From a virus (taxonomy: Duplodnaviria; Heunggongvirae; Uroviricota; Caudoviricetes): a stretch of 64,000 bases of DNA. Both the position numbers and the translations under genes were made by a program. Positions 24,130 through 50,291 of the stretch are shown here, in pieces. The stretch's first letter is position 1. Each line of letters begins with the position of its first letter. The stretch is from IMG/VR virus record IMGVR_UViG_3300009500_000011, positions 104,585-168,584 of that record; one strand, given 5' to 3'. The notes below the pieces were generated by a model that made no database searches, was not told the DNA's origin, and was given only the letters and a program-made list of their open reading frames with translations.

Positions 24130-24165
24130 TTTGTACGCCCAGCCCAAGCGTTATTGGGCTCCTTT

Positions 24166-24935: not shown

Positions 24936-24938
24936 TAC

Positions 24939-24967
24939 TTGACAAAATATTTGAAATAGAGTAATAT
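24939..24967 (+). promoter_or_regulatory. promoter TTGACA-N17-TAATAT directly in front of the Cys-rich mini-ORF (near-leaderless)
   Basis: The -10 ends 6 nt before ATG 24974. Confidence 0.45.
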
Positions 24968-24973
24968 GTAAAT

Positions 24974-25093
24974 ATGAATACTAATCATAGAGTCTGCCGT
25001 TGCGACGGTAAACCATATCCAAAAAGTCTAAGATGCAAGTGTAATTGCCAATGCGAAGGTTGTTCAGGAGCCCGCAAGGCAAGAAGCAAATAA
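24974..25093 (+). CDS. Cys-rich 39-aa protein
   Basis: MNTNHRVCRCDG...CKCNCQCEGC; a consensus promoter lies immediately upstream. Confidence 0.3.
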   Translation: MNTNHRVCRCDGKPYPKSLRCKCNCQCEGCSGARKARSK

Positions 25094-25103
25094 ACTGAAT
25101 ATT

Positions 25104-25188
25104 GGGACTTTGGCAGAGCGGTTATGCAACGGACTCTTAATCCGTGAGGGAAACCTCTATGTGGGTTCGACCCCCACAGGTCCCACCA
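25104..25188 (+). tRNA. type-II tRNA (15-nt variable arm) carrying a Lys-type anticodon loop CTCTTAA (CTT)
   Basis: Acceptor GGGACTT/AGGTCCC, stem ACGGA/TCCGT, variable arm GAGGGAAACCTCTAT, T-arm GTGGG-TTCGACC-CCCAC, A73-CCA. Confidence 0.5.
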
Positions 25189-25197
25189 AATAACTAT

Positions 25198-25274
25198 GGG
25201 ATAGTAGGAGAATTGGCATATCTACCACGTTTAGACCGTGGGTTCTGTGGGTTCAAGTCCCACCTATCCTACCA
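25198..25274 (+). tRNA. class-I tRNA (5-nt variable loop) carrying a Leu-type anticodon TAG
   Basis: Acceptor GGGATAG/CTATCCT, stem CCACG/CGTGG, loop TTTAGAC, T-arm GTGGG-TTCAAGT-CCCAC, A73-CCA. Confidence 0.55.
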
Positions 25275-25281
25275 AATATTT

Positions 25282-25310
25282 AAAAGACCTGATATCAGGT
25301 CTTTTATCAT
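25282..25310 (+). terminator. intrinsic terminator after the tRNA pair
   Basis: AAAAGACCTGA-TA-TCAGGTCTTTT + ATCATT. Confidence 0.6.
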
Positions 25311-25587
25311 TCAAAAAGTTTAATTTAATATGGCAAGAAAAAACATAGATGATATTTATAACGAAAACAATTATGTTCAGAAAAATTATACAGGCAGCGG
25401 TTTTGCCCTTGGTTTAGCCTTGGCGGCGACATGTTTGATAGCGTTGCACCTTCTGGGAGTTAAATTGATTTAATATGGTAAGATTAAAATTAAAATGGAA
25501 AATAAAAAAAGATGGATATGGTTTAAAATCATCTTGGAAAAAGAAAAACAAACATAAAAAATCTTTTATTATCTGGAAATAAAAATA

Positions 25588-26253
25588 ATGCCTTTAAAAA
25601 TCGTGTGTATTTCTGATACTCACAATTCATTAAATCAACTTGAACTTAATGGATTAAAAATGCCAGAAGCAGATGTTCTTATACATGCTGGTGATTTAAC
25701 ATTTAAAGGCCAACTTCCAGAAATTTCAAAAGCAAATTATCATTTAGGGAAAATTAAACATAAGTATAAACATGTGGTTTTTGTTCCAGGAAATCATGAT
25801 TTTCTTTTTCAAAAAGATGAAGCAATTGCAAGGGCTGTATTGTCTAATGCAACCGTATTAATTGACCAACCTTTAGAAATTGAAGGTTATAAATTTTACG
25901 GTAGTCCTTGGCAACCCTGGTATCAAGATTGGGCATTTAATTTTAAAAAATATTCAGCAGGAGGAAAAGAACAGTCAATTCGTATTTGGGGAGCTATTCC
26001 TGAAGAGACTGATATTTTAATTACTCATGTCCCGCCATATATGATGATGGATAAAACTGAATATGGTGAAAATATTGGTGATGCTTGGCTTGCTAAACGT
26101 TTGAAAGAACTTCCTAATCTTAAACTTCATGTTTTTGGGCATGTTCATGAAAGATACGGTAAAGTAGAAGCAAAAATTACCTTTGTTAATGCAGCTTCTA
26201 TGAACCGTAGATATAGCATTGTGAATCCACCAATTGTTATAGATTTGCCTTAA
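25588..26253 (+). CDS. calcineurin-like metallophosphoesterase
   Basis: CISDTHN, GDLTFKG, GNHD, GHVH motifs. Confidence 0.6.
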   Translation: MPLKIVCISDTHNSLNQLELNGLKMPEADVLIHAGDLTFKGQLPEISKANYHLGKIKHKYKHVVFVPGNHDFLFQKDEAIARAVLSNATVLIDQPLEIEGYKFYGSPWQPWYQDWAFNFKKYSAGGKEQSIRIWGAIPEETDILITHVPPYMMMDKTEYGENIGDAWLAKRLKELPNLKLHVFGHVHERYGKVEAKITFVNAASMNRRYSIVNPPIVIDLP

Positions 26254-26262
26254 AATAAGAAT

Positions 26263-26742
26263 ATGGATAACAAAGATTTGGTAGTTCATTGTAAGATAAA
26301 ACCTTACGACGTTTATATTGGGCGAAGCAAAGACCCTAAAAAAGGTAAGTGGGGGAATCCTTATTCTCATGAAGAAGGAACCCTTGCCGAATATAAAGTG
26401 GCAACCCGAGAAGAAGCGGTAGAATGTTTTCGTAAATATTTATTAAAAAATGTCGATTTAATGAAACAAATTTTAACCTTAAAAGGTAAAGTTTTGGGAT
26501 GCTGGTGTAAGCCTAAATCTTGTCATGGAGATATTATTGTAGAATTTATTAATAAAATTGACAATGGTGAATCCTTGTGCGATAATTGTGAAGAGGAAGA
26601 TTGTTATTATTGCAATCTTGGTTGTCCTTGGTGTGGACATGCACACAGTTTAGATGGTTCATGTAAAAATTGTTGGTTAGAAGCATGTCAAATAAATGAT
26701 GAAGAAATGCTTCTAAGAATAAAAGATTTAATACCTAAATAA
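26263..26742 (+). CDS. hypothetical protein (DUF4326-like N-terminus, Cys-rich C-terminus)
   Basis: GNPYSHEEG ... LGCWCKPKSCHGDII, then a CxxC cluster. Confidence 0.3.
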   Translation: MDNKDLVVHCKIKPYDVYIGRSKDPKKGKWGNPYSHEEGTLAEYKVATREEAVECFRKYLLKNVDLMKQILTLKGKVLGCWCKPKSCHGDIIVEFINKIDNGESLCDNCEEEDCYYCNLGCPWCGHAHSLDGSCKNCWLEACQINDEEMLLRIKDLIPK

Positions 26743-26746
26743 AATT

Positions 26747-26833
26747 GGCCGAATGGCGGAATTGGTAGACGCGGCAGACTCAAAATCTGTTGTCCGAAAG
26801 GGCGTGTGGGTTCAAGTCCCACTTTGGCCACCA
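26747..26833 (+). tRNA. tRNA-Leu (anticodon CAA), type II
   Basis: Acceptor GGCCGAA/TTTGGCC, stem GCAGA/TCTGT, loop CTCAAAA, long variable arm, T-arm GTGGG-TTCAAGT-CCCAC, A73-CCA. Confidence 0.7.
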
Positions 26834-26862
26834 CAAATTGAATTCTTTAAGAAGAGGAAAAA

Positions 26863-27309
26863 GTGATTAACTTTATTAAAAAGATTTTTAAACTAGGTAG
26901 TACCCAACCGAAGAATATTTCGTCAAATTCAAAACCATCGACAGCGAGTAATTCAATTAATTACAATGTTCATCCCATTGTGATTGAGCGACCTCTTCCG
27001 ACTCCTAAGCCGGTGTATTACGATGATACATCTTCGCAATTAACGAATATGTTGTTAATGGAAGAGATTATTGATTCAAGTTATCAACCTACCACAACGG
27101 TAATTGTAGAACCACCAGCACCTGTTGATAATTACAATAACTATTCGGCACCAGAACCTTCGCCGTCTTCGTCGCCAAGTCCATCATATGATAGCGGTTC
27201 ATCATATTCAGATAGTAGTTATTCGTCGTCTTCTTCATGGTCTTCTTCGTCATATGATAGCGGTAGTAGTAGTTCGTCTTCATCATATGATAGTGGTGGT
27301 GGTTGGTAA
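26863..27309 (+). CDS. Ser/Tyr/Pro-rich low-complexity protein
   Basis: C-terminal SSSPSPSYDSGSSYSDSSYSSSSS repeats; flanked by two tRNA-Leu-type genes. Confidence 0.35.
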   Translation: MINFIKKIFKLGSTQPKNISSNSKPSTASNSINYNVHPIVIERPLPTPKPVYYDDTSSQLTNMLLMEEIIDSSYQPTTTVIVEPPAPVDNYNNYSAPEPSPSSSPSPSYDSGSSYSDSSYSSSSSWSSSSYDSGSSSSSSSYDSGGGW

Positions 27310-27320
27310 ATAATAATAAA

Positions 27321-27403
27321 GGGCAAGTGGTGGAACTGGTATACACGTATGTCTAAGAAGCATATGCGAAAGCATGTGGGTTCGAGTCCCACCTTGCCCA
27401 CCA
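27321..27403 (+). tRNA. type-II tRNA, Leu-like body, anticodon loop CTAAGAA (reads AAG; A34 unusual)
   Basis: Acceptor GGGCAAG/CTTGCCC, 7-bp anticodon stem, variable arm TGCGAAAGCAT, T-arm GTGGG-TTCGAGT-CCCAC, A73-CCA. Confidence 0.5.
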
Positions 27404-27425
27404 TAATTTAAGGGAATATAAATCT

Positions 27426-27881
27426 TTGATGTTAGATGATTTAATTACGCCACTTAATTCTTTTCAAGAATTAAAAAATATTCTTGAAGAAAATCCTAGA
27501 CTACATTATAGCAAAGGTTATGCAGGTAATATTTCTACGATACCTGGTCCTGTAATTCTTTATCCAATTATTGGTGTGGTTAGAAATAAGGCTAATTGGC
27601 GTTTGATAAATGGCAAAATTTATGGCGGAGAAATTTTAATAAAAGTTTTTGCAGAAGTCGATTATACAACTACTGTTTATCCTTTAGATTATTTACTTGA
27701 TGATTTAAATGAACTTACTCTTGAAGAATTAGCACGACCTATTTTGATTTCTCCATGTAAGAGAAATCAAAATATCGAAGAAGTCACTCTATATGCAGAG
27801 TGTGCAGGAATTTTAACTCGACCAGATGAATTTGATACCAACCTATATTTAGGTTTTGGAAAATTGCCAGAAATCATATAA
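27426..27881 (+). CDS. hypothetical protein
   Basis: Track ORF. Confidence 0.4.
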   Translation: MMLDDLITPLNSFQELKNILEENPRLHYSKGYAGNISTIPGPVILYPIIGVVRNKANWRLINGKIYGGEILIKVFAEVDYTTTVYPLDYLLDDLNELTLEELARPILISPCKRNQNIEEVTLYAECAGILTRPDEFDTNLYLGFGKLPEII

Positions 27882-27889
27882 TGAAATTT

Positions 27890-27979
27890 GGGGATATGGT
27901 GAAATTGGTCAGACACAACAGGCTTAAACCCTGTCGGGCGTTATATCCCATGTCGGTTCGAATCCGACTATCCCTACCA
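27890..27979 (+). tRNA. tRNA-Leu (anticodon TAA), type II
   Basis: Acceptor GGGGATA/TATCCCT, stem ACAGG/CCTGT, loop CTTAAAC, 17-nt variable arm, T-arm GTCGG-TTCGAAT-CCGAC, A73-CCA. Confidence 0.75.
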
Positions 27980-34465: not shown

Positions 34466-35905
34466 TTGAACAAAATTTACGACCTTATCATTATTGGAAC
34501 TGGCCCAGCAGGTTTTTTCTGTGCAATAGATTTAGTTAGAAAAGGATATACAAATATCCTTATGATTGATAAAGGTTCTCTTCGTACAGGTAAATCAGAC
34601 GAAAATGTGACAGAAGGATGGGCAGGGGCTGGGGCACATTCCGATGGTAAGGTCAATATGACTCATAAAGTCGGAGGAATCTTAGCCGACGTTATTGGGT
34701 TAAAGCGTTTCCATGAGTTATTAGAAAAACAAGACCAAATGTGGCTTGATTTTTCTCCAACAAATGAACAAAAAAAATTACGTCAACAAAAATCTCCTGA
34801 TGCTGATTTAGATGTAAGGTTATTCGTTCCAACTGATGAATCTAAAATTTTAAGAGCTAAAGCCTTAGCAAATCACATGGAACTTGAAACATATCCAATA
34901 AGACATTTGGGCACAGATAATATGTTAGATTCAACTAACAATATGCTCGAATATCTTAAATCTAATGGTGTTGAAGTAGTATTAGAGGCTGAAGTAAAGC
35001 AAATCTGTAAATATAAAAATGAAGAAGAATTTGTAGTAAGAGTTCAAAAAAAAGATAGTTGGTGTGACCCAGAATTTGGAGACTATGAACTTGAACATTA
35101 TGACGGGAAGAATGTTCTTATTGCTACAGGACGCTCTGGGGGGCATTTCTTCCGTGAAACCATGCAATGCTTAGATATTCCTATGTTAAATAATGGCGTT
35201 GATATTGGTGTTCGTGTCGAAGTTCCAAATGAGATTACAGATGGACTCTTAAAAGCCGGTATTTATGAACCTAAAATGCTTTATAGAACACCAACATTTG
35301 ACGATTCCGTTCGCACATTTTGCTGGTGTAATAGTGGATTTGTTGCAATAGAAGAATATCGTGATACCGGAATTAAGACAGTTAATGGTCATTCCTATGC
35401 CGACAAGAAATCTAACAATACAAATTTTGCTTTACTTGTTACAAAAACATTTACTTCGCCATTCGATAACCCACAAGCATATGCAGAATCAGTTTCAAGA
35501 ATGGCCAATCTTTTATCGGGTAATTCTGTTTTAGTTCAAAGATATGGAGATTTTAAAGCAGGTAGACGTACAACAGAAAAAAGATTAAATGAAGGAGCCC
35601 TTGTTCCAACTCTTGATGCAGTACCAGGAGATTTATCTCTTGCTATTCCTTATCGTCAAATGTTGGCAATCGGAGAAATGTTAGAAGCTATGGACAAAGT
35701 TTTACCAGGTATTGCAAGTAAATACACCTTGTTATACGGTATTGAAGCTAAATTCTATAGCAATCGAGTTAATATTGATTCAAATAGTATGACAGAAATT
35801 AAAGGTCTTTATGTTGCTGGAGACGGTTCTGGATGGACAAGAGGGTTAAATCAAGCGGCAATTCAAGGACTTGTTGTTAGTGAAGGAATTTTAAATGCAA
35901 AATAA
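34466..35905 (+). CDS. FAD/NAD(P)-binding oxidoreductase (COG2509-like)
   Basis: N-terminal dinucleotide fold DLIIIGTGPAGFFCAIDL and C-terminal GLYVAGDGSG. Confidence 0.55.
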   Translation: MNKIYDLIIIGTGPAGFFCAIDLVRKGYTNILMIDKGSLRTGKSDENVTEGWAGAGAHSDGKVNMTHKVGGILADVIGLKRFHELLEKQDQMWLDFSPTNEQKKLRQQKSPDADLDVRLFVPTDESKILRAKALANHMELETYPIRHLGTDNMLDSTNNMLEYLKSNGVEVVLEAEVKQICKYKNEEEFVVRVQKKDSWCDPEFGDYELEHYDGKNVLIATGRSGGHFFRETMQCLDIPMLNNGVDIGVRVEVPNEITDGLLKAGIYEPKMLYRTPTFDDSVRTFCWCNSGFVAIEEYRDTGIKTVNGHSYADKKSNNTNFALLVTKTFTSPFDNPQAYAESVSRMANLLSGNSVLVQRYGDFKAGRRTTEKRLNEGALVPTLDAVPGDLSLAIPYRQMLAIGEMLEAMDKVLPGIASKYTLLYGIEAKFYSNRVNIDSNSMTEIKGLYVAGDGSGWTRGLNQAAIQGLVVSEGILNAK

Positions 35906-36149
35906 TAAAACAGATTTATGTTTAAAGGCTTGGTTCTTTGCTTTTAATGTCGGAGATAGAATTTCTTTCACTTATAATAGCGCAGAATGTCAAGGCGAAA
36001 TTATTGAAATTCTCTATCAAACAGAATCAGATAATGAATTTGTAGCAGCCGTTAGCTTCTGTAATGATTGGCCAGCACTTGGTAATAGTACGCAGGTGAC
36101 ACTCACTAACAGTAATAACCTTAAATTACTTTATCCTCAAAATTGGTAA
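35895..36149 (+). CDS. stand-alone 'PQNW' domain protein (paralogue of the C-terminus of the 41543..44878 gene product)
   Basis: Shares F.YN...CQG.II...FC..W.A.G..T...N.L...PQNW with residues ~1040-1111 of the 1111-aa protein. Confidence 0.4.
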   Translation: MQNNKTDLCLKAWFFAFNVGDRISFTYNSAECQGEIIEILYQTESDNEFVAAVSFCNDWPALGNSTQVTLTNSNNLKLLYPQNW

Positions 36150-36233
36150 ATAATTAAACCACTTGAGTATAGTATACTTGTGTGGCCATAACTATTATAT
36201 CATGGCTTAATTTTGAAGGAGTATTTAAATTTT

Positions 36234-36779
36234 ATGTTCGAAAAACTAAAAACTTTTTTAAGCGTTGCCTATGATGTAATTCGCGGACGCGCTTTAGTAG
36301 AAACGCTTCATCCACGTAAACGTAATAAAGTTCGTTTGGAAATTATTCGTGCTGATGGCACAAGAGAATTACTTTCCGCAGGATGCAATAGTCGTGTAAA
36401 TAGCGGAGCAAACTGGCAAGCTTCACTTATGGGAAGTGCCGCAGGTACACCAGCAAATTATATGGCCCTTTCAACGGCAACATTATCTCCTGCTCTTACA
36501 GATACTTCACTTACCGGAGAAATTACTTCAGGTACAAATGCTGGACTTGCAAGAACACAAGCAACATATCAAAACTATACAGCACCAACAACCTTGGGCG
36601 GTCCTGCTTCATATCAATTGCAACATACATTTACTTCTTCAGCAACCGCTACAGTAAATAGTGCTGCTCTTTTTAATGCGTCTTCTTCTGGAACAATGTT
36701 CGTTGAAGCAAACCTTTCCCCCTCTGCCACACTTGCTTCTGGGGACCAGATAGTTTTAACGTGGAGTGTTCAAATTTAA
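36234..36779 (+). CDS. Ala/Thr/Ser-rich protein, possibly structural
   Basis: ATG 36234 with GAAGGAG upstream (the track start is TTG 36213); low-complexity surface-like composition. Confidence 0.35.
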   Translation: MFEKLKTFLSVAYDVIRGRALVETLHPRKRNKVRLEIIRADGTRELLSAGCNSRVNSGANWQASLMGSAAGTPANYMALSTATLSPALTDTSLTGEITSGTNAGLARTQATYQNYTAPTTLGGPASYQLQHTFTSSATATVNSAALFNASSSGTMFVEANLSPSATLASGDQIVLTWSVQI

Positions 36780-36826: not shown

Positions 36827-37306
36827 TTGTTATATGATTCTATCATGGAAGATATGAATTTATTCAAAAAATGTGGTCATTGCAAATTAGTTTATCGTAA
36901 AACTTTCTTTTTTAATAATAAAGCAAGATATGATGGATTAAGTAGTCAATGCAAAAAGTGCCATCAAGAAGACACTACCAAACGATATAATTCATTAAAA
37001 CAAAAATGTTTTGAAAAATATGGTGGTAAATGTATAAAATGTGGCGATACTGATAGTCGAGTTCTTCAATTTGACCATATAAATGGTGGTGGTGCAAAAG
37101 AATTAAAAAGTCAAATTTTTGGCGGAACTTATGTACCTTCTACTTACTTTCAAAAAGTTTTAAAAGATACTACAAATAAATTTCAATTATTATGTGTAAG
37201 ATGTAATTGGATAAAGAGACATGAGGAACGTGAGCAGTTTACTCGTCTGAATGAGCAGCCAATTACAGGTGAATTACTTCAAAGGTTTATAGAATATAGG
37301 GGCTAA
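36827..37306 (+). CDS. HNH homing endonuclease (family copy 2)
   Basis: CGHCK...CKKCH ... QFDHINGGG ... CVRCNWIKRHEE. Confidence 0.6.
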   Translation: MLYDSIMEDMNLFKKCGHCKLVYRKTFFFNNKARYDGLSSQCKKCHQEDTTKRYNSLKQKCFEKYGGKCIKCGDTDSRVLQFDHINGGGAKELKSQIFGGTYVPSTYFQKVLKDTTNKFQLLCVRCNWIKRHEEREQFTRLNEQPITGELLQRFIEYRG

Positions 37307-37310: not shown

Positions 37311-40300
37311 ATGCCAGAAGGCTTTGTTTCAGTCCCAGATAATAGTGATGCAAGTATAACAGTTAAGGTAGTTGATACAAATGAAATAAGCATTATATCA
37401 ACTACCTTAACCACAGCAGTTACAGGTGCAGGTATATTTACCGTAACGCCTGCATCTATTACTGGAATTGGTATCGGAACACCATTAATTGTTGACACTC
37501 TTGTAAGTGGTGTACAAGAATCTGTCAATGTTCTTTCTATTGTTGGTTCAAGTTTTTCTGCAAAATTTGCATATGCTCATGCTTCAGGTGTTCCATTAGT
37601 ATTAAATGTAGAGCGCCAGAATATGAGTATAGCAGACCCAACAACTTATGGCAATATTGCTAAGGTTGCAAGTGGTACTGCATCTATAACTGATATTGGT
37701 TTAACTGTAAGACCTATTCCTACTTCGATTCCTGCTGGGACAAATACCATTGGAAATGTTGCTATAACTAGTCCTAATGGTGCTGCTGCTGGTATATATG
37801 GCCTTGTTAATCCTTATGGTACTACTCGTATTAGTGGAGAGCCAATAGGTTTATTTACTGATACTTTTGATGGTACAACTTTTGATACTGTAAATCGTTG
37901 GAATACGCCTACTGTGGTTAATGGTGGTGCATATTCACAAAATAATGGAGATTTAAGTTTAACAACTGGTCTTACTGCTAATGCTCAATCTATTGTTACA
38001 TCGCAACCAAATTTTGTGCATGTAGGTAGTAGTTTTCTTGAATATACAACAGTTGTTCAATTAGAATCTAGTCCAATAGCTACAGGTTGTCATCGTTATT
38101 GGGGAACAGGAACTTCTCCAACAGTTATTTCTGCGACAAACCCTGTTCAAAATGGATATGGATTTGAAGTAACAACTACAGGAACAATGAATGCAGTTGT
38201 TTATGCATCTGGAACTAAAGTTGGTTCTTATCCATTATCTATTCCAACGGATGGACTTCCACATAGATATGCAATTATTATTCGTTCAGATGTTGTTTTT
38301 TATTATGTAGATAACATCGAAGTTCCAGTTGCCGAATTTATGTTTGTTTTACCATCTGTACAAACTCTACCAATAAGATTTCATATTTTAAATGGAACTT
38401 CTGCTTTAACAAAAGCGCCAATTCTTTATGCTTATGGTGTTGCTATGTCCGATACGGCAGAAAATTCATCTGCTATTTCTGATGGTACTTATCCTTGGCG
38501 TAAGGCTTCTGTTGAAAATATAAATCCTAGTTCATCTGATTATGGGTTAGTAACTAGAAATATTCCCAATAGTACATCTAATCAAGCAATCGTTTCAAAT
38601 GATTTATCTACGACAGGAACTATACAAAATTTAAATGATACTGTTTCTTTAACATTAAATGGTATATCAAGTTGGATTGCTGAATTACAAGGAACTTGGA
38701 CAGGAACAGTACAATTTGAAGCATCAATTGATGGTATTAATTTTGTACCATTACGCGGCAGACAAAGTGGTATGGGTGGAAACACTATACTTTCAACTCA
38801 GGTTACAAGTACAAATGGGTATTGGCGTGGTAATGCTGCTGGGTTTAATATTTTTAGAGTACGTGCAATAACTGCTTTAACTGGTCCTGCAACTATAAAT
38901 ATTAAAGCAAGCATTGGTACAGATGCTGTCTTTTTAGATGCAGGTTTACCTCCAGGAACTGATTATATCGGTCAGGTTGGAGGAACTACCACAACATATC
39001 CTGTTACAGCCGGTGCAGTAATTACAACTACTCCAGGAACTACTGGTGTATCCGTTTATTCAGATACATATGGTAATATGAGAACTATTGTTTCTGATTA
39101 TGTTCAAACAGGAACACTTGTTAATTTAAATGATACTATTGTTGTAAATCAAAATGGTGGTTATACTGCTTGGAATGTATCATTATCTGGAACTTGGACT
39201 GGCGTAGTAACTTTTGAAGGTTCAGTAGATGGTACTAATTGGCAATCTATTACGGGTAGATTAGCCGGTGTAGAAAGTGGTCCTTTATATAATTCAACAG
39301 GTCTTAACGGTGTGTATAGAGGAAATGCTGCTGGTCTTCAATTCAGAGTAAGATTAAGTGCTATAACTAGCGGAAGTGTTACTGTTACAATTCGTTTAGG
39401 TCAAGGACCTTATGGAGTTTTCTTAAATTCTGCATTACCTGTTGGAACTAATAATATCGGTAGTATTTCTACTAGCACATTTCCTTCAACAGGCGTAAAC
39501 AATGCCCCAGGTACAGTTGGACAGACGCTATTATCTGATAGTGACGGTTCATTAAGAATACATGCTGCTGATATTTATTCTTCGGGAACAATTAATACAT
39601 TAGGCGCTACTGTTCAAATACAACCTGTTGGTCATGCTACTGCTTTAATTAATATTCAAGGAAGTTTTGTTGGTACGTTTCAATTTGAAGTTTCATTAGA
39701 TAGTTTAACGTATTATCCTATTGAAGTCAAACAAGTAGGTGTTTCAACAACGACATTATTAACAACCTCTAATGTTGGTGGAATTTTTAGAGGAAATATT
39801 GCCGGGGCTTTATATTTTCGTGTTCGCGCAACAAGTTGGACTTCAGGAAGTGCTACAGTTTATATTAACGGTTCACATGCTACTGCCCCTGTATTTTTAG
39901 ATGCTGGTCTTCCTATAGGTACAAATAACCTTGGAAGCACACAATTAGCGGACGGAACAAATAGTTCTCAATTAGCCAAGGTAACATCTGATGGGGCTCA
40001 ACTTGTTGCTATAGATTCAACAACATCATTGCCTGCTGGAACTAATTCAATTGGAAATGTTACATTAAATAACGACCTTACCTATACTGGAACTATTCTT
40101 GCCGGAACACAATTAAGCCATATTATTATACCTTTAAATGGTGCTAATACTATCGGTGTTAGCTGGACAAATAACAGTACAAATGCTATTTTACAATTTC
40201 AAGCAAGTGTTGATGGAGTAAACTATGTAGGTATTGTTCCTTATGAATCAAGTGTTTTGAATTCTTATGTTTCTACAGTATCGTCAGTATTATTTAACGG

Positions 40301-40886
40301 GCGTGTAAGTGTTGCTGGTTATAGTTACTTTAGAATTAGTAATCAATCCGCAACAGGTAGTGTTGGTTCAAATACAATCAATGTTAATTTTACTGTTAGT
40401 GGTAATTCTTCTATTGTAACTCTTGTAGACCCTATTCCACCTGGTACAAATGCTATCGGTACTGTTGGAGTAACAGCATTGCCATCAATACCTGCTGGTG
40501 GTAATACAATTGGAAATGTAAAATTAGTTGATACTGCTGGAAGCAATCAAGCTTCTGTAAATACAAATGGTTCTCTTTCGGTTTTATCTTACAATGATTC
40601 AACTACGACATATTATTATGCTACCGCAGCTAGTGCAAATGTTCTTGTTAAAAATGGTCCCGGCAGATTAATCTCTGTTACTGTTTTTAGTGCAAGTACA
40701 GGCATTTATGGTATTCTTTTTGATACTAATGGAACTCCAGTAGCAGGAACAACCACTCCATTAGTTGTTATACCTGCTTATGCCCCGGCAGGATATACAG
40801 TTTTTTGTGATATTCCTTTTGCAAATGGTTTGACTATTTTTGGAACCGGCTCAACCGGACCTACATATACTGTAAATTATCGTTAA
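37311..40886 (+). CDS. tail fibre / receptor-binding structural protein with 4 tandem ~200-aa domain repeats
   Basis: 1191 aa, Gly/Thr/Ser/Asn-rich. Recurring ...GTWTG.V.FE.S.DG.N...I.GR...G...RG.AAG...FRVR...T.G...I... module four times. Confidence 0.5.
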   Translation: MPEGFVSVPDNSDASITVKVVDTNEISIISTTLTTAVTGAGIFTVTPASITGIGIGTPLIVDTLVSGVQESVNVLSIVGSSFSAKFAYAHASGVPLVLNVERQNMSIADPTTYGNIAKVASGTASITDIGLTVRPIPTSIPAGTNTIGNVAITSPNGAAAGIYGLVNPYGTTRISGEPIGLFTDTFDGTTFDTVNRWNTPTVVNGGAYSQNNGDLSLTTGLTANAQSIVTSQPNFVHVGSSFLEYTTVVQLESSPIATGCHRYWGTGTSPTVISATNPVQNGYGFEVTTTGTMNAVVYASGTKVGSYPLSIPTDGLPHRYAIIIRSDVVFYYVDNIEVPVAEFMFVLPSVQTLPIRFHILNGTSALTKAPILYAYGVAMSDTAENSSAISDGTYPWRKASVENINPSSSDYGLVTRNIPNSTSNQAIVSNDLSTTGTIQNLNDTVSLTLNGISSWIAELQGTWTGTVQFEASIDGINFVPLRGRQSGMGGNTILSTQVTSTNGYWRGNAAGFNIFRVRAITALTGPATINIKASIGTDAVFLDAGLPPGTDYIGQVGGTTTTYPVTAGAVITTTPGTTGVSVYSDTYGNMRTIVSDYVQTGTLVNLNDTIVVNQNGGYTAWNVSLSGTWTGVVTFEGSVDGTNWQSITGRLAGVESGPLYNSTGLNGVYRGNAAGLQFRVRLSAITSGSVTVTIRLGQGPYGVFLNSALPVGTNNIGSISTSTFPSTGVNNAPGTVGQTLLSDSDGSLRIHAADIYSSGTINTLGATVQIQPVGHATALINIQGSFVGTFQFEVSLDSLTYYPIEVKQVGVSTTTLLTTSNVGGIFRGNIAGALYFRVRATSWTSGSATVYINGSHATAPVFLDAGLPIGTNNLGSTQLADGTNSSQLAKVTSDGAQLVAIDSTTSLPAGTNSIGNVTLNNDLTYTGTILAGTQLSHIIIPLNGANTIGVSWTNNSTNAILQFQASVDGVNYVGIVPYESSVLNSYVSTVSSVLFNGRVSVAGYSYFRISNQSATGSVGSNTINVNFTVSGNSSIVTLVDPIPPGTNAIGTVGVTALPSIPAGGNTIGNVKLVDTAGSNQASVNTNGSLSVLSYNDSTTTYYYATAASANVLVKNGPGRLISVTVFSASTGIYGILFDTNGTPVAGTTTPLVVIPAYAPAGYTVFCDIPFANGLTIFGTGSTGPTYTVNYR

Positions 40887-40892: not shown

Positions 40893-41540
40893 ATGCCTGG
40901 TTTACAAACGTTATATCTTACAAACACAGAATCCGTTATAACACCTGTTACTTCAATAAAACAGATGAATTTAGCATATGGTACAGCAAGTGATTCGTCT
41001 ACAAAAGTTGTTAATACAGCAAGTGGAACATATCAATTTATTCCAGCAAATGCTGCTAATGGAACTGCTGCAACTGTAAGCACTTCGCCGACTTCTAAAG
41101 GTTGGATATTTGAAAATACAATACCAGGGAGATATTGGCCTGGAACATGGACAATTCAGGCTTATGTTGCTTGTTCAAATAGTGGAGTTTGGACAGGTGA
41201 AACAGGGAATCTTGAAGCAAAATTTTATATTGTAACTCCAGGAACAACCACCGTTACAGAATATGCTGGTAATGCAAGCGGTACATTTACGTCAACAGCA
41301 CAAAATTTATCAGCAAATAATTTTACATTTTCTTCAAATTTAACTGTTAATCAATTTTTTTACATTTATCCAACTGCTTTATTATATGTAGAGCTTTATT
41401 GGGTTCTTGCCAATAATGCTTTTACTACAACAACTGCTTTATGGTTGGATTCACCAAACACATTTATTAAAACTTCATTTTTTGAAGAATATACAAATTT
41501 CAATTATCAAACTAGAAGAAGAACAGGAATGGGGAATTAA
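40893..41540 (+). CDS. tail-fibre-associated structural protein
   Basis: Thr/Ser/Asn-rich 215-aa ORF between two fibre genes. Confidence 0.35.
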   Translation: MPGLQTLYLTNTESVITPVTSIKQMNLAYGTASDSSTKVVNTASGTYQFIPANAANGTAATVSTSPTSKGWIFENTIPGRYWPGTWTIQAYVACSNSGVWTGETGNLEAKFYIVTPGTTTVTEYAGNASGTFTSTAQNLSANNFTFSSNLTVNQFFYIYPTALLYVELYWVLANNAFTTTTALWLDSPNTFIKTSFFEEYTNFNYQTRRRTGMGN

Positions 41541-41542: not shown

Positions 41543-44500
41543 ATGTCGCTACTCTTGTTGTATAACCGTAAACTTTTTCAGTCTACATTAACTAATTCTA
41601 ATTTAACTTCTGATTCAAATTCAAGAAAAACTTATTTTTCAAGAACTAATGTAGATTCAAGTTTGTTTTCTGATTCTTCTGCTAGAAGTGCAAATTATAA
41701 TAGAGCATCATCAGATATATTCAACTTATCTGATAGTCTTTTGCGTAATACGTTTTATGCACGTAGTTTTCAAGAAATATATTCTTTTTTCGATTCATTA
41801 AATAGACAAGTTGATAACAGTAGAAGTGAATCAGAAATTTTTAGTACGATTGATATTCAAAATTTATCACGATTTTATAATCGTTCATCCACAGATTCTT
41901 TTAATTTTTCTGATAGTAATTCTCGGTTTTTAGATTTTGCTCGTCTTCAATCTGATGTTTTAATTTTTAATGACTTAATTAATCGTTCCACTAATGTAAA
42001 TCGTTCTATAACCGACCAATCTATAGAGATAGATTCTTTAACAAGACAAATTATTGATAATCGCCAAACTTCGGACGTATTCAATACTATTTTATCTTTT
42101 ACAGAACAGCAGTTTTTATCTAGGTCAACTACCGATGGATTAAGTTCTTTTACAGATTCTTCATCGTATAGTCGAGTTTTGCCACGTTCTGTTATGGATA
42201 CTTTTAGTTTTTCGGATTCAAATTCTATTTCTCAATTACTTCTAAGAACATTTAGTGAAAGTTATTCTTTCAATGATGTTCTTAGTAATTCTGGAACTCA
42301 TATCGCTTTTTTAAGTGATGTATTAACAAATTTTGTAGATTCAATAAGCGCCGAACAGTTTGTTTCAAGAACAATGTCTGATAATCTAACGACATTAGAT
42401 TTAGTAACTTCAGTTAAGACTTTTTATAGATTAAATTCAGATAATACTAACTTTGCAGATGCTATCTCTTCTGCTAATATTTTAAATAGATTTAATATTC
42501 AAAATTTAAATTTTAATGATTCACTTAATAATCAAAATATTTTTAATAGAAATAATAGTGATTTAGTTAATAATTTTAATGATTCCACTTTAATATCTCA
42601 ATTTTTAAATCGAACCTCAAATGAGGTGTTTTCAACATCTGATATTTTATCTTTGGCGCAATTTTTGTCTCGTAATCCAACAGATATTCTTACAACGTTA
42701 GATAATAACGGTAGAAATATCTTTATTTCTAAATCAGTAATTGATTCTATTTTAACTTTCGATAGTCTTCAAAGCACGAAGATTGCTAATTTAAATCTTC
42801 AAGAAACATTTAGCTTTAGTGATGTTCTTTTAAGAAATATTATAGATTTCCGTACAAATTCAGACAGTTTTGCGTTTGTTGATTTTGTCAATAATTATAA
42901 TATATTTACAAAATCAATTGTTGAATCTTTCCAAACAAATGATTTGCTAACAAGGGAGTATATCTCAAATCAAAATCTTCAAGAAAACTTTAATTTTTTA
43001 GATATATTATCTGAAAGTCAATTTTTACAAAGACAATGTTCAGAACAATTTAATTTTATTGATGGTATATTGAGAGAAGTAATCATTAATAGGGCCATGA
43101 ACGAAACTCTATTGGAATCAGATGACATTACTACTGCTTTAGTTTTCTTTAGGAATATAAATGAACAATTCTCTACCGCAGCATCTGTAAGTTATGTACA
43201 TTCATTCGTTAGAAATTTGTTAGAAAATTTTGCAACTTCTAATTCCATTAGCAGGGCTCTTATTTCTCCAAGAAATACTTCTGATTTCTTTAATCAAATT
43301 GTCGATACTTTAAATTCATATAAAATTGCCAATTTTAATCTTGATGAAACTTTTGCATTTAATGATTCTTTATCTCAAATGTCTCTGGTTTTTAGGAATT
43401 TTTCAGATTTATTTAGTTTTTTTGATTTTACAACAAGTAATGCAATAATTCCTAGAAATATTGAAGAATCATATCCTATAAGTGATTCATTGTCCAATAA
43501 CAATTTGTTTTCAAGACTTTTCGAAGAAGAATTTAATTTTACTGATGCTGTTAATATAAGTCAGAGTTTGGCGCGTCAATTCTTAGATAGTTTTATTTTT
43601 TTTGATAATGTTTCAACAAATAGTTCAGGCGGTTTGTTTTTAAGAGTAATATCAGATGTTTTAAATACTAATGATTCTAGTGAAATAAATCAATTTTTAA
43701 ATCGTGAAAATACCGATACATCATTAACTAGTGATTCGCTCCAAAACTCCAATATTTTAAATAGACAATTTCAAGACTTATTAAGTATAGCAGATACCTT
43801 AACTTCTACTAATGAATTTAATAGATTTTTTTCTGATTTGTTGCAAACTAATGATGCTGCAAATTCAAATTACGTTTATAATTCAAATTTATCTGATAAT
43901 TTAAACACAAGTGATTCGCTAAATAGATTTTTTCTAAATATTGCAAACTTAGCAGAAACATTTACAACAACAGATTCCAACTCCAGAGAATCTATTTTGG
44001 CGCGAAGTCTATCTGAAACATTTTCTCTATTGGATTTATTAACTAGAGTTTTATCTAAAGTAAGGTTATTAAACGATAATCTTCCCTTTACTTTTGATTC
44101 ACTTGCAACATATAGTACGTTTTTTAGAGAACTGCAAGAAGAGTATATATCATCCGAAGAATTAATTAACGAATCTATTTATAAAAGGCAACTTGAAAAT
44201 ACATTTACAACTTTGGATGAGTTGATGCGTGTTTTACTTATTGCTAGGGAAGTATTTGAAGTCGGAGAAATATCAGATACTGTTGCAAGTAAAGCAGTTA
44301 TTCTAAGATTTGTAGAAGAATTTTTTGAATTAGTAGATAATATTGCCTTAAATCAAAGAATTAATCGTAGTTCTGAGTATCAAAGTAACTTCTCGGATAT
44401 TCTAAATAGAGAAGTTATATTAGAAAGATTTTTGTCTGATTCAAGTCAATTTTTTGACAATTCTTTACTTCAAAAAGTTGGTGCAAGATTTTTCGTTAAT

Positions 44501-44878
44501 TTATTTGATGAATACTCATTTACTGATGAACTTATTGGGACAAGTTTGTTAGAAAGATTTTCTCAGGACATATTACAAACAGCCGATGAAGTTGCTCGTT
44601 TAGTAAATAATAATAGAAGTGTAGAAGAAATTTTTGAATTCTTAGATATTGCTTCGCGTAAACCAGTATTTAAAATTGGTCAAAGAGTTAAATTCAGATA
44701 TAATGGTGCCTTATGTCAAGGTAAAATTATTTTAAGATATTATGCAACAAATCCTAGTGAAGGCATTAGATATCAAGTTAATGTTGATTTTTGTAGTAAT
44801 TGGAAAGCAATTGGAAAAACAACACGAATTGATGTAGATTTAAATGATTTATTATCAATTAATCCTCAGAATTGGTAA
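41543..44878 (+). CDS. large fibrous repeat protein (~21-aa period S/N/D/F repeats) with C-terminal PQNW domain
   Basis: 1111 aa. Dozens of F-[NST]-x-[ST]-D-[ST]-L-x-R/N-type repeats; distinct globular last ~70 aa. Confidence 0.5.
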   Translation: MSLLLLYNRKLFQSTLTNSNLTSDSNSRKTYFSRTNVDSSLFSDSSARSANYNRASSDIFNLSDSLLRNTFYARSFQEIYSFFDSLNRQVDNSRSESEIFSTIDIQNLSRFYNRSSTDSFNFSDSNSRFLDFARLQSDVLIFNDLINRSTNVNRSITDQSIEIDSLTRQIIDNRQTSDVFNTILSFTEQQFLSRSTTDGLSSFTDSSSYSRVLPRSVMDTFSFSDSNSISQLLLRTFSESYSFNDVLSNSGTHIAFLSDVLTNFVDSISAEQFVSRTMSDNLTTLDLVTSVKTFYRLNSDNTNFADAISSANILNRFNIQNLNFNDSLNNQNIFNRNNSDLVNNFNDSTLISQFLNRTSNEVFSTSDILSLAQFLSRNPTDILTTLDNNGRNIFISKSVIDSILTFDSLQSTKIANLNLQETFSFSDVLLRNIIDFRTNSDSFAFVDFVNNYNIFTKSIVESFQTNDLLTREYISNQNLQENFNFLDILSESQFLQRQCSEQFNFIDGILREVIINRAMNETLLESDDITTALVFFRNINEQFSTAASVSYVHSFVRNLLENFATSNSISRALISPRNTSDFFNQIVDTLNSYKIANFNLDETFAFNDSLSQMSLVFRNFSDLFSFFDFTTSNAIIPRNIEESYPISDSLSNNNLFSRLFEEEFNFTDAVNISQSLARQFLDSFIFFDNVSTNSSGGLFLRVISDVLNTNDSSEINQFLNRENTDTSLTSDSLQNSNILNRQFQDLLSIADTLTSTNEFNRFFSDLLQTNDAANSNYVYNSNLSDNLNTSDSLNRFFLNIANLAETFTTTDSNSRESILARSLSETFSLLDLLTRVLSKVRLLNDNLPFTFDSLATYSTFFRELQEEYISSEELINESIYKRQLENTFTTLDELMRVLLIAREVFEVGEISDTVASKAVILRFVEEFFELVDNIALNQRINRSSEYQSNFSDILNREVILERFLSDSSQFFDNSLLQKVGARFFVNLFDEYSFTDELIGTSLLERFSQDILQTADEVARLVNNNRSVEEIFEFLDIASRKPVFKIGQRVKFRYNGALCQGKIILRYYATNPSEGIRYQVNVDFCSNWKAIGKTTRIDVDLNDLLSINPQNW

Positions 44879-44904
44879 CTTTACAGTTTCTTTACATAGC
44901 ATTG

Positions 44905-44933
44905 TTGCAAATATTGGTATGCTTGTCTATAAT
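44905..44933 (+). promoter_or_regulatory. promoter TTGCAA-N17-TATAAT driving the noncoding region upstream of Ro60
   Basis: 5/6 -35, 17-nt spacer, perfect -10. Confidence 0.5.
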
Positions 44934-45036
44934 CTCTAATAGAGTTGAAGCTGAAGGAAACGAAGCAGGTGGTTTAAATGCCATCGGAAGCAAGTGCAAG
45001 TCTTGCCATCTCTGCCATAAAAAACTAAATAAATTT

Positions 45037-45070
45037 GAGTTGCGTTAGAGTACGGTTACTTCTTAATTGA
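45037..45070 (+). repeat. repeat copy R1 (tTGCG-N-TAC-G-TTACTTCTTaatTGA)
   Basis: gagttgcgttagagtacggttacttcttaattgac, shared with R2/R3. Confidence 0.5.
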
Positions 45071-45278
45071 CATATACCTAATGTCCCACCTCAATAAAGG
45101 AGTAAAATCTTTTATTGGGCTAGTCACCTGAGTCGTGGTGAGACGCATTGTGCAAATGTTAGTGGAGGCTCGTAAAATAAGCCTAGAACTAAAAATTCTT
45201 AGACTTAAGATGTAAAAATCAAAAGTCGGTCCCGTACTTGCCCTCTTCTCTCAAATTTATTTTAAAAATTAAAAACTT

Positions 45279-45312
45279 GGGTTGCGACAGATTACAGATA
45301 CTTCTTATATGG
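45279..45312 (+). repeat. repeat copy R2
   Basis: gggttgcgacagattacagatacttcttatatgg. Confidence 0.5.
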
Positions 45313-45367
45313 AATAAAAAAGCTGTATTCGCTACCTTCTCCCGAGTATAAATTTTATAATATTTAA

Positions 45368-45400
45368 ATTGCGTTAATTACAGATACTTCTTGTATATTG
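45368..45400 (+). repeat. repeat copy R3 (followed by tRNA-like T-loop GGTTCGAGTCC)
   Basis: aaattgcgttaattacagatacttcttgtatattgg. Confidence 0.5.
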
Positions 45401-45519
45401 GTTCGAGTCCATTAAGTGTAGTCGGTACACAACTGTAGTTGTTCCATTCGTTTAAATTTTATTTAATCCTTGGGAATATATTTCTCAAGGATTTTTTTGT
45501 TGTCATAAAGGAAAAAAGA

Positions 45520-47205
45520 ATGAAATACAATACTAAAACAGTAAATGCTGGTCCAGGAACAAAAATGATAAATCTTGCAGGCGGAGAAGCTTTTAAAGTT
45601 GATAATCGTACTGCATTATATTTAACTTCTGCAACTTCTTTAGGTGGCGGTCAAGGAAATAAATATTATGTTTCTGCAAATCAAGAATACAAAAATATTC
45701 TTGAACTAATTGAAAAGGTTTCCGCTCAAGACCCAGAATTTATTTTCCAATTGGCTGCATATTGTCGTCAAGATTTATACCTTCGTAGTATTCCAACGGT
45801 ATTATTTATCGAAGGTATTCGTGCAATGCATAAGCAAAAAAAGGCCAATGCACCATATCCAGTAGATGCATCTAAGTATGCAAATGCTATTTTTGGTCGT
45901 GCTGATGAAATTGTTGAAGCAGTTGCATATTGGCTTGGAGTTGAAGGCCATCACAAATTGCCTTCCCCTCTTCGTAAATCTTTGACCATTGCTTTAAATT
46001 CATTTGATGAATACCGCTTGCTTAAATATAATCAAGAAGATAAGCAAGTTACATTTAAAGATATTGTTCGTCTTGTGCATCCAGAACCAAAAACTGATGT
46101 GCAAAGTGCAATTTTCAAATACTTCATCAAGGATGAAATCAGTCCAGAATTAATGCCAAAGGCAACTGCCCGCAAGGCTTTGCTTTCACGTACTCAATTT
46201 GATGAAGAAGCACAACGCTTGATGAGAGATTCATCTGCTACTTGGGAAACTGTAATTGCTAAATTCGGTTCGACTAAAGAAATTTGGGAAGCAGTTATTC
46301 CAAATATGGGATACATGGCTTTATTACGTAATCTTAATAATTTTCTTAAAAAAGAAGTAGATTTAGATTTAGTAATTCCTCGCCTTGTGAATCCGCAAGA
46401 AATTCGTAAAAGCAAGCAATTGCCTTTCCGTTTTTACACAGCAATGAAACAACTTGGTGTAGAAGATAACAATAAGAATTCTACGATGACATATTATGGA
46501 TATTCCGATTCAGTAAAAACAGCATTTGAAAAATGGCGTAATGTAAATTCTAGCGATGGAATTTCTCGTTTACGTAATGCTCTTGGTGTTGCTATGAATA
46601 TTGCAGTAGAAAATGTTCCTCACCTTTCAGGTCGTACCGTTGTTGCGGCAGACCTTTCTGGTTCTATGAGTCAACCTCTTAATAACAAATCAAATGTAAC
46701 TTATCGTGAAATCGCTTGTATTATGGCTGGTATTGCTGGTTCAATAGCACCAGATAATGTAATTTGTGGATTTGGTTGTTCATTTGCTGTTGCTAAAAAA
46801 GGCAAAGATATTCTTGAAACTGCAAATAATATTGATAAATTAAATGTTGGAATGTCAACGGATGCATGGCGTATTCTTGATTACTTGCTTACAAACAAAA
46901 TTTTTGTAGATAGAGTCATGTATTTTACAGATACACAATGTTATAATTCATATGGGGGCGCAAATTTAAACGAACTTTGGAAAAAATACAAAGTTCTTTG
47001 CCAATCAACTGGTAAAAAAGTTCCTGTTCTTTATGAAGTAAATCTTGCAGGTGGTAATACATCTAGTTTTAATTCTGAACAAAGAGTTGCTACCATTGGT
47101 GGATGGTCTGAAAGAATTTTTGATTTAATTACTACTTATGAAACTGACCCTCGTCAAGCAATAAGTAAAATTAAAGAAAAATATTCAGATTTAGTATCTG
47201 TTTAA
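45520..47205 (+). CDS. Ro60/TROVE-domain protein with C-terminal vWA/MIDAS
   Basis: Size, helical N-terminal repeats and C-terminal VVAADLSGSMS MIDAS motif as in Ro60/Rsr orthologues. Start set at ATG 45520 (AAAGGAAAAAAGA upstream). Confidence 0.5.
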   Translation: MKYNTKTVNAGPGTKMINLAGGEAFKVDNRTALYLTSATSLGGGQGNKYYVSANQEYKNILELIEKVSAQDPEFIFQLAAYCRQDLYLRSIPTVLFIEGIRAMHKQKKANAPYPVDASKYANAIFGRADEIVEAVAYWLGVEGHHKLPSPLRKSLTIALNSFDEYRLLKYNQEDKQVTFKDIVRLVHPEPKTDVQSAIFKYFIKDEISPELMPKATARKALLSRTQFDEEAQRLMRDSSATWETVIAKFGSTKEIWEAVIPNMGYMALLRNLNNFLKKEVDLDLVIPRLVNPQEIRKSKQLPFRFYTAMKQLGVEDNNKNSTMTYYGYSDSVKTAFEKWRNVNSSDGISRLRNALGVAMNIAVENVPHLSGRTVVAADLSGSMSQPLNNKSNVTYREIACIMAGIAGSIAPDNVICGFGCSFAVAKKGKDILETANNIDKLNVGMSTDAWRILDYLLTNKIFVDRVMYFTDTQCYNSYGGANLNELWKKYKVLCQSTGKKVPVLYEVNLAGGNTSSFNSEQRVATIGGWSERIFDLITTYETDPRQAISKIKEKYSDLVSV

Positions 47206-50124: not shown

Positions 50125-50155
50125 ATTAAATCTTTCTTGAAGAAGAGAAAAATAA

Positions 50156-50284: not shown

Positions 50285-50291
50285 AATTTTT

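Follow-up and report, generated by a model that had tools for sequence, protein, structure and literature searches.

Why would a phage that encodes a giant repeat protein also keep a small, separate gene for little more than the last domain of that protein? The question is raised by a 64,000-nucleotide (nt) stretch of DNA, hereafter the window, which covers positions 104,585 to 168,584 of the Caudoviricetes virus record IMGVR_UViG_3300009500_000011 in IMG/VR. On the + strand of the window, an open reading frame (ORF) of 84 amino acids (aa), ORF84 (35895..36149), specifies a protein that matches the C-terminal end of a 1111-aa repeat protein encoded on the same strand (41543..44878); the shared part is referred to here as the PQNW domain. 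The answer that we favour, tentatively and as a possibility rather than as the probable solution, sees the 1111-aa protein as a giant rope that bears a globular domain at its end, and ORF84 as a paralogue with almost no rope.

The PQNW domain occurs twice in the window

Residues 16-84 of ORF84 aligned with residues 1042-1111 of the 1111-aa protein in BLASTP, with 27 of 71 positions identical (38%), 58% positives and an expect value (E) of 4e-14, and this was the sole significant alignment between the two proteins. When either copy was used to search the six-frame translation of the window with tblastn, it retrieved just its counterpart (E ~4e-13), and the next match had E > 1. Given these E values, chance is far too weak an explanation for the similarity, and the number of copies in the window is exactly two. 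The resemblance had first been pointed out in a reading of the letters made without database searches (the sequence-only reading), which quoted three motifs, F.YN...CQG.II, FC..W.A.G..T and the terminal PQNW. All three are found in both copies, the alignment is significant well past the few residues quoted, and ORF84 is, as that reading had it, a detached version of the domain that ends the long protein, encoded by a gene of its own. The description of the long protein as a repeat protein was also correct. It consists of ~51 tandem 20-residue units, its identity autocorrelation reaches 0.229 at lag 20 against a background of ~0.07-0.09, with peaks at 20, 40 and 60, and the register of the repeats, which contain very few indels, can be seen when the protein is written in rows of 20 residues.

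In DNA the coding sequences of the two copies agree at 57% of positions and share no exact run longer than 9 nt; their orientation is direct, and neither is flanked by direct repeats. Across all copies of the domain that were compared, within the window and in its relatives, pairwise identity ranged from 14 to 68%. In this comparison ORF84 was 40% identical to its own long partner, versus 41-42% to the stand-alone proteins of other phages. A neighbour-joining tree did not separate a single from a repeated origin of the stand-alone forms at 25-45% identity, and groupings of the copies of one genome as sisters had <50% bootstrap. As judged from these alignments, ORF84 and the end domain of the 1111-aa protein are old paralogues.

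ORF84 is maintained as a protein-coding gene

An orthologue of ORF84 (P0001, 93% identical) was found in the same gene order on a metagenomic contig of 274,834 bp (L001; ERZ25039479 contig_29692) and on four shorter contigs. ORF84 and P0001 differ at 11 synonymous and 8 non-synonymous sites, which corresponds to a synonymous divergence (dS) of 0.277, a non-synonymous divergence (dN) of 0.040 and a dN/dS of 0.145. We conclude that this small gene is functional and that its protein product is under purifying selection. Its ATG at 35895 shares 11 nt with the 3' end of a gene for a flavin adenine dinucleotide (FAD)-dependent oxidoreductase (34466-35905), and inspection of its N-terminus by eye revealed no signal peptide.

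The spacer between ORF84 and the next gene, which encodes a Gp80-like protein, is conserved to an unusual degree. Positions 36150-36233 contain 2 differences across the window and four relatives (L001, L002, L004 and L005), versus a divergence of 7.5% inside ORF84, and the coding DNA that flanks the spacer differs by 5-8% among the five contigs. The palindrome within it (36166-36178) has no second occurrence in the window. The spacer with its palindrome is a candidate regulatory site of the module that follows. Promoter and terminator consensus scans around ORF84 gave results at chance level.

A rare domain family with a conserved C-terminal barrel

A family profile built from the two window copies and P0001 was searched against 1.84 billion representative proteins with a cut-off of E<=1e-3. 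There were 16 matches, 14 of them credible. One (P0013, 2113 aa) was judged spurious, and another (P0015) is a chain of SH3-type repeats that connects the domain weakly to such repeats. The credible members fall into two groups, short proteins of 84-123 aa and proteins of 152-406 aa in which the domain follows tandem repeats. Two additional long proteins came from a hidden Markov model (HMM) scan of the relatives' loci. The first, in L011 (>1403 aa), has 20-residue repeats throughout and is terminated by the domain (…TDWY); the second, in L019 (1334 aa), is composed of Laminin_G_3, then 20-residue repeats, then the domain. With the family HMM the window copies scored 107.5 and 87.5 bits in six-frame translations.

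The domain spans ~70 aa and is recognized by F-x-Y-N-G-A-x-C-Q-G, followed by (F/Y/V)-C-x-x-(W/Y) and a terminal aromatic residue. Residues F25, C32 and G34 are invariant in the 16 sequences of our alignment A3, and G34 is replaced in the 1334-aa protein of L019. It sits at the extreme C-terminus, as every member ends within 0-3 residues of it. What comes before it differs greatly. The repeat members have between ~3 and >65 units of 20 residues, and the short members a single strand-like unit. This unit is kept in the stand-alone homologues (KDLSLGAYF, NDLNFDAVF, DDLTFSATF and NDLQAAVTF), and the last unit ahead of the domain in the long L019 protein reads FDLRAAVTF. The barrel is thus the sole part conserved throughout the family, and N-termini and repeat numbers vary. 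Stand-alone forms that carry the conserved N-terminal unit are present in several deep lineages, at 25-46% identity.

Both copies of the window were modelled independently with AlphaFold2 (AF2), and each was predicted as a five-strand barrel, with a predicted local distance difference test (pLDDT) score of 65.6 for ORF84 and 85-94 for the fused copy. In the models, a strongly bent, antiparallel five-strand sheet of ~60 residues is seen, as is typical of SH3-like/Tudor small beta-barrels. Both models matched Tudor, chromo, KOW and SH3-type barrels, and a Foldseek search of the PDB with the fused copy returned Tudor, chromo, Agenet, KapB and CAP-Gly barrels. The PQNW domain is therefore predicted to be a compact SH3/Tudor-like five-strand beta-barrel. 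No Pfam or PDB sequence match places it in the Tudor/chromo 'royal family'.

Searches for a name for the domain were negative at every level. None of the 16 members had a Pfam match even at E<=10, and neither PHROGs nor a sequence search of the PDB held a family for the domain. Word-indexed protein searches with ORF84 returned its orthologue alone, those with the C-terminal 83 residues of the 1111-aa protein returned no candidate, and those with the family alignment no new member. IMG/VR scans with either copy found no relative, and no PQNW-domain relative is present among GenBank phages. In tblastn against the same phages the 1111-aa and Gp80-like proteins found nothing, and the 1191-aa protein encoded between them had one marginal match. 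The PQNW gene and domain are rare and previously undescribed.

The long protein belongs to a fibre-type module

All placed members of the family lie on related phage contigs with a common backbone of genes for an oxidoreductase (often with a LAGLIDADG intein), RlaP, Metallophos, TROVE and Peptidase_C1. In the window and L001 the order is oxidoreductase, ORF84, Gp80-like protein, HNH endonuclease, a gene of ~1200 aa, a 215-aa gene, the 1111-aa repeat protein and TROVE. The arrangement differs between lineages. In L010 and L013 a Gp80-like gene and large genes are followed by a short repeat-plus-domain protein (190 or 200 aa) as the last gene, and there is no stand-alone copy. In L009, L006-8 and L017 a stand-alone copy is all that is present; it is coupled to a phosphatase gene or to other small genes, and no Gp80-like gene is in view. 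In L011, L012 and L016 the >1403-aa repeat protein is followed 2 nt on by a stand-alone copy of 98 aa, and in L019 a Gp80-like gene, the one that passes the Pfam cut-off, lies directly 5' of the 1334-aa gene, which is followed by a 97-aa stand-alone copy through a TAATG overlap. Long and stand-alone forms are thus paired in at least three lineages (window/L001; L011/L012/L016; L019/L020), and within one genome the two copies match each other with E 1.4e-12 (L011) and 1.8e-12 (L019). The repeat proteins that were found lay near a Gp80-like gene in every case (window, L001, L010, L013 and L019), and the loci with only a stand-alone copy have none. The surroundings covered were 10 kb on either side in L009 and ~3-5 kb on either side in the 6-9-kb contigs L006-L008.

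A split gene was considered as a source of the stand-alone copies. The proteins encoded 5' of them in L006 and L009 are helical and unrelated, so a frameshift in a repeat gene does not explain the copies as its 3' part.

The module itself bears signs of exchange. Its HNH gene (PHROG 2255) is present in the window and L001 and missing between the Gp80-like gene and the large gene of the otherwise near-identical L002 (5783-6041); because of this absence at the same position it is probably a mobile homing element. The 1191-aa protein has three to four repeats of ~165 aa, spaced by ~495 nt in the DNA and each with 'GTWTG…F(E/Q)(A/G)S(I/V/L)DG'. Its N-terminus is homologous to a 284-aa protein of L010 and its repeats to a 1163-aa protein of the same contig, and since that N-terminus is a protein of its own in L010, parts of the module have been shuffled between phages. 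In L019 the equivalent of the 1191-aa protein carries Laminin_G_3 and is fused to the repeats plus the PQNW domain. Relative to L001, dS was 0.277 for ORF84, 0.186 for the Gp80-like gene, 0.112 for the 215-aa gene and 0.035 for the 1111-aa gene. This eight-fold range between neighbouring genes indicates a mosaic history, with recent exchange of the repeat gene between lineages.

Gp80-like proteins and the 20-residue period

The window's Gp80-like protein matched Pfam family PF23140 with E 6.7e-6 and 26.9 bits, against a cut-off of 27, and its orthologue in L019 lies above that cut-off with 33.2 bits. When compared by hhalign with the gp80 family of the Ralstonia podophage GP4, it was aligned with a probability of 92.5% and E 4.8e-7. 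These data show that the module encodes a homologue of GP4 Fiber-1 and of whisker proteins.

In phage Bas63, dimers of the whisker protein gp5 wrap round a rope 'such as beads on a string', and the rope, running through the grooves of the dimers, completes their sandwiches (PMC12609058). The Bas63 rope is an N-terminal extension of the collar protein, whose globular C-terminal part mounts on the neck, and the five Fiber-1 dimers of GP4 sit on a rope that is a protein in its own right (PMC12609058). Of the GP4 proteins compared with PDB 8JOU, gp80 (10 chains) and the adaptor gp77 (3 chains) were the sole matches. We found that the gene adjoining gp80 in GP4, gp79 (AXG67774; L022 8948-9925 (-), 325 aa), encodes ~11 20-residue units and, after them, a tail of ~85 aa without repeats. 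Its autocorrelation at lag 20 was 0.192, a value reached in none of 2000 shuffles. Protein gp79 is a strong candidate for the GP4 Fiber-1 rope.

The gene adjacent to a gp80 homologue and other neighbours were checked for periodicity in seven further divergent phages. A period of 20/40 residues was significant in four actinobacteriophages (Melc17 gp33, Faith1 gp24, Argie gp26 and prophi89-1 gp49), all of them 'minor tail proteins' that share the 20-residue period; it was weaker but visible in Gmala1 gp20 and in PVJ1_00058 of PVJ1 (341 aa), and CRP-5 gp55 had mainly an 8-residue period. With GP4 included, the 20-residue period is significant beside the gp80 homologue in five of eight cultured phages, and a top lag of 20 or 40 was significant in none of the 32 other neighbouring proteins tested. 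In the repeat proteins of L011 and L019 the signal at lag 40 is above that at lag 20, which fits two units per dimer. By eye only, the pre-domain unit of ORF84 (TDLCLKAWFF) resembles the putative rope units TDLFLDVAF and ADLSLSAL of Faith1 gp24.

A rope and its end piece

These observations suggest a model in which the repeats of the 1111-aa protein form an extended scaffold, or rope, on which the neighbouring Gp80-like subunits would be threaded as beads. If gp79 is the GP4 rope, one 20-residue unit would correspond to one subunit and one 40-residue pair to one dimer. The C-terminal barrel would be the globular end that fixes the rope to the particle, by analogy with the Bas63 collar. We read it as a fixed end rather than as a host-range tip because the barrel alone is conserved and because of the layout of the Bas63 protein. 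ORF84 would then be an end piece with a single unit, offering the same kind of site and room for at most one bead, and ORF84-type proteins would act alongside the long rope protein or, in relatives that lack the module, alone. Such an end piece would account for the phages with only a stand-alone copy, the phages with only a fused copy and the recurrent pairs. The term 'fibre' in the sequence-only reading is upheld in one respect, as the 1111-aa protein does lie within a fibre-type gene module, but a rope-like scaffold for Gp80/Fiber-1-type subunits is likelier than a self-sufficient shaft, and the fibre would be a composite of rope and Gp80-like beads.

Several points weigh against this model. 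We infer both the link of the repeats to the Gp80-like protein and that of ORF84 to the virion. The repeats share their period and strand-like motifs with those of GP4 and the mycobacteriophages, and no significant sequence similarity; the PQNW profile did not match the C-terminus of gp79; and gp79 has no sequence match in the PDB, so that its role as the rope is likewise one that we infer. AF2 draws the repeats within the last 271 residues of the 1111-aa protein as helices, at a low pLDDT of 40-55, which would fit a segment that needs a partner in order to fold. The mounting domain of Bas63 is immunoglobulin (Ig)-like and the barrel here SH3-like, which leaves 'mounting end' as an analogy only, and no Ig-like collar or adaptor was present among the listed fold matches of the end domain or among the scanned module genes. 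The window has three genes between the Gp80-like gene and the repeat gene, and the translational coupling of ORF84 is with the oxidoreductase gene instead of the module. In two relatives the stand-alone gene is surrounded by genes of RNA repair and nucleotide metabolism, no module being in view, and a non-virion role is for that reason possible.

If the rope and end-piece model is true, the architecture of whisker dimers on a rope known from GP4 and Bas63 reaches uncultured jumbo phages. Ropes would also have acquired a signature, namely 20-residue units in a gene beside a Gp80-family gene, which flags GP4 gp79 and the 'minor tail proteins' of several actinobacteriophages. A rare and unnamed SH3-like domain would become the constant end piece of such ropes, and the recurrence of a long rope together with a paralogue that almost lacks one would suggest control of the number or length of appendages. 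Should the model fail, the locus would still hold a small conserved gene that has one domain in common with a giant repeat protein, which is of modest interest.

Alternative explanations

A more specific version holds that the PQNW barrel is a new virion-mounting domain and that ORF84 and the 1111-aa protein co-assemble on shared sites, giving particles with stubs plus ropes of ~50 beads at one unit per Gp80-like subunit. We consider this unlikely. If it were true, the rope would be the longest known, appendage length would be set by repeat number, from 1 to >65 units in one family, and the rope-less paralogue would set how many sites carry a fibre.

It is also doubtful, to about the same degree, that ORF84 engages the C-terminal barrel of the long protein in a homotypic contact, either to aid its folding or oligomerisation, as in the assembly chaperone proposed by the sequence-only reading, or to remain on it as a cap. 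Tail-fibre assembly proteins and T2-type gp38 adhesins act on or cap their fibres, and directly downstream is the classic position of fibre assembly genes. The stand-alone gene is found directly 3' of the long gene in two lineages (the 2-nt gap and the TAATG overlap described above), the pairs recur in at least three, and the two copies of a genome have terminal tails in common (PQNW/PQNW in the window, DWY/DWY in L011). In the window, however, ORF84 lies 5.4 kb upstream of the long gene as a separate translational unit, and within the surroundings covered in L009 and L006-L008 the stand-alone copy exists without a long protein. ORF84 has no similarity to known fibre-assembly families in Pfam or PHROGs, and we know of no precedent for a chaperone that is homologous to its client domain. 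Neither ORF84 nor the 1111-aa protein had a Pfam match to the Peptidase_S74 intramolecular chaperone.

Quite improbable, in our view, is a cytoplasmic function, in which ORF84 would be a small beta-barrel of the Tudor/Sm/KOW-like kind that binds RNA or protein and works with the RNA-repair and nucleotide-metabolism genes, its fold being reused by the long proteins. The SH3/Tudor fold class contains many RNA binders. The start of ORF84 overlaps the stop of the oxidoreductase gene, and the stand-alone copies of L009, L006 and L017 are coupled to genes for phosphatases or other non-structural proteins and lie near TROVE/Ro60, RlaP and Metallophos. The upstream partner gene varies between lineages, however, and this domain, its conserved residues unchanged, also forms the end of proteins fused to, or encoded beside, Laminin_G_3 and Gp80-type fibre components; the module of this kind in L019 has the stand-alone copy as its last gene.

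Very improbable is a barrel that serves as a distal receptor- or glycan-binding knob, as in the tail-shaft-knob plan of adenovirus, with ORF84 as a free knob acting as the decoy that the sequence-only reading had mentioned, as a receptor blocker or as a second adhesin. The order of parts, from a short conserved N-terminus through repeats of variable number to a globular domain at the C-terminus, fits such a plan, and SH3-like barrels are common ligand-binding modules. Here, though, the C-terminal domain is constant while N-termini and repeat numbers differ, which is the reverse of the usual pattern of a host-range determinant; ORF84 lacks a signal peptide by inspection, and the fold searches showed no likeness to known fibre tips.

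Finally, it is scarcely credible, and by now largely refuted, that ORF84 is a spare 3' end for fibre-tip swapping (the recombination or host-range cassette of the sequence-only reading) or the decaying leftover of a deleted fibre gene: although it stands at the edge of a variable module downstream of the oxidoreductase gene, where in L009 a stand-alone copy occupies the place of the window's stand-alone copy, module and TROVE, and although the module contains an HNH endonuclease gene and dS relative to L001 is very uneven, the copies are too diverged and unflanked by repeats as described above, their direct orientation means that recombination would remove the module instead of exchanging a tip, the dN/dS of ORF84 is low and its stand-alone form old, Pfam and PHROGs revealed no reverse transcriptase or invertase among the eight proteins scanned (34.4-47.2 kb), and divergence between the window and L001 is patchy over the whole region with no break at ORF84.

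Features of the locus and its surroundings

Table 1. Features of ORF84 and of the downstream module, in window positions.
Feature	Position	Strand	Remarks
Shine-Dalgarno-like AAGGA	35883..35887	+	7 nt before the ORF84 start codon, read from sequence
ORF84, stand-alone PQNW-domain protein	35895..36149	+	84 aa plus stop
Pre-domain unit TDLCLKAWFF of ORF84	35910..35939	+	residues 6-15; single strand-like unit, type D-L-x-L-x-A-x-F
PQNW domain of ORF84	35940..36146	+	residues 16-84; predicted five-strand SH3/Tudor-like beta-barrel
Intergenic spacer, ORF84 to Gp80-like gene	36150..36233	+	near-invariant in relatives; holds palindrome AGTATAGTATACT
Gp80-like protein ('bead')	36234..36779	+	homologue of podophage GP4 Fiber-1 and whisker proteins
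HNH endonuclease gene within the module	36827..37306	+	PHROG 2255, E 2.8e-19
1191-aa multi-domain protein	37311..40886	+	internal ~165-aa repeats
215-aa protein	40893..41540	+	without recognisable family; conserved in L001
N-terminal segment of 1111-aa protein	41543..41602	+	MSLLLLYNRKLF...; resembles the N-terminus of P0010 (MSLIVLLNHKLY)
Tandem 20-residue repeats, putative rope	41603..44665	+	~51 units; consensus ~R-x-x-S-D/E-x-F-x-F-x-D-S-L-x-R-x5
C-terminal PQNW domain of 1111-aa protein	44666..44878	+	residues 1042-1111, plus stop

The window resembles part of a jumbo phage, with nearly all ORFs on one strand, a guanine-plus-cytosine content of ~32% and 29 tRNA genes. It encodes a primase, a ribonucleotide reductase, a Thg1-like enzyme, an RNA ligase and a TROVE/Ro60 protein, and a megablast search of its 35-45 kb segment against GenBank phages found no close cultured relatives. 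The 29 tRNA genes, called with Rfam at the gathering threshold, are clustered at 16876-19019, 19951-20023, 23092-27976, 50048-50366, 53532-53621 and 58686-62941; together with the Thg1-like, RNA-ligase-like, RlaP and TROVE genes they make up an unusually rich tRNA and RNA-repair complement. The FAD-dependent oxidoreductase of the window (479 aa) is without an intein, and those of three relatives carry a LAGLIDADG intein (L001 7516-10011, L010 2289-4724 and L013 667-3123; 831, 811 and 818 aa).

A further tRNA-like match (RF00005, 44941-45014 (+), 32 bits) was observed in the 560-bp gap at 44879-45438, directly upstream of a gene for a TROVE/Ro60 protein with a von Willebrand factor A (vWA) domain (45439-47205). 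It passed the gathering score in local search only, it was not called by ARAGORN, and the region does not stand out in its fold z-score. The bacterial RNAs that partner Ro60, those of the YrlA type of Y RNA, bear tRNA-like modules, and because the match adjoins the TROVE/Ro60 gene it may be a phage Y-RNA-like gene.

Two observations concern the relatives. Directly 3' of the domain-bearing gene, L010 (10719-11153) and L011 (4596-5018) encode proteins of 140-144 aa with a signal peptide and a C-terminal Phe, which look like small outer-membrane beta-barrel proteins. In L019, a forest-soil relative, adjacent Acb5-like and Acb2/Tad1-hairpin-like genes (12328-12851) lie ~2.4 kb 3' of the stand-alone PQNW gene; we take these to be sponge families directed against CBASS and Thoeris.

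Comparison with known systems

A second copy of a fibre-type C-terminal part a few kb away is also a property of the template repeats of diversity-generating retroelements and of the invertible G and C segments of Mu and P1. ORF84 differs from these in its DNA identity of 57% to the other copy, its direct orientation and its lack of flanking repeats, and in being itself a selected protein-coding gene. With lambda Tfa, Mu U, P2 G and T4/T2 gp38 it shares the association of a small gene with a long fibre-type gene, to the point of lying directly downstream in L011 and L019. The small protein is here homologous to the end domain of the long protein, however, and unlike genes of the Tfa/gp38 type ORF84 is upstream of the module, and the small gene persists without the long one in some relatives. 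Adenovirus-type fibres resemble the long protein in overall layout and in a repeat number that varies widely between relatives; there is no homology, and on the rope model the long protein would be no self-sufficient shaft. Among SH3-like small beta-barrels (Tudor, chromo, PWWP, Agenet, KOW, KapB, CAP-Gly and bacterial SH3), the PQNW domain is set apart by a motif set of its own and by the lack of a significant sequence match.

The closest comparison is with the assemblies of Bas63 and GP4. The end domain is an SH3/Tudor-like barrel here and Ig-like there (gp77 as the fibre-tail adaptor in GP4), the number of units is ~51 in the window and >65 in L011, versus ~4 bead positions in Bas63 and 10 in GP4, and a nearly rope-less paralogue such as ORF84 has not been described for either phage. 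What the systems have in common is a Gp80-family subunit, encoded here within the module, and, as in the Bas63 collar protein, an extended part that is joined to a single globular end domain; the putative rope of the window is built of tandem 20-residue units, a period that recurs in GP4 gp79 and beside the gp80 homologues of the four actinobacteriophages.

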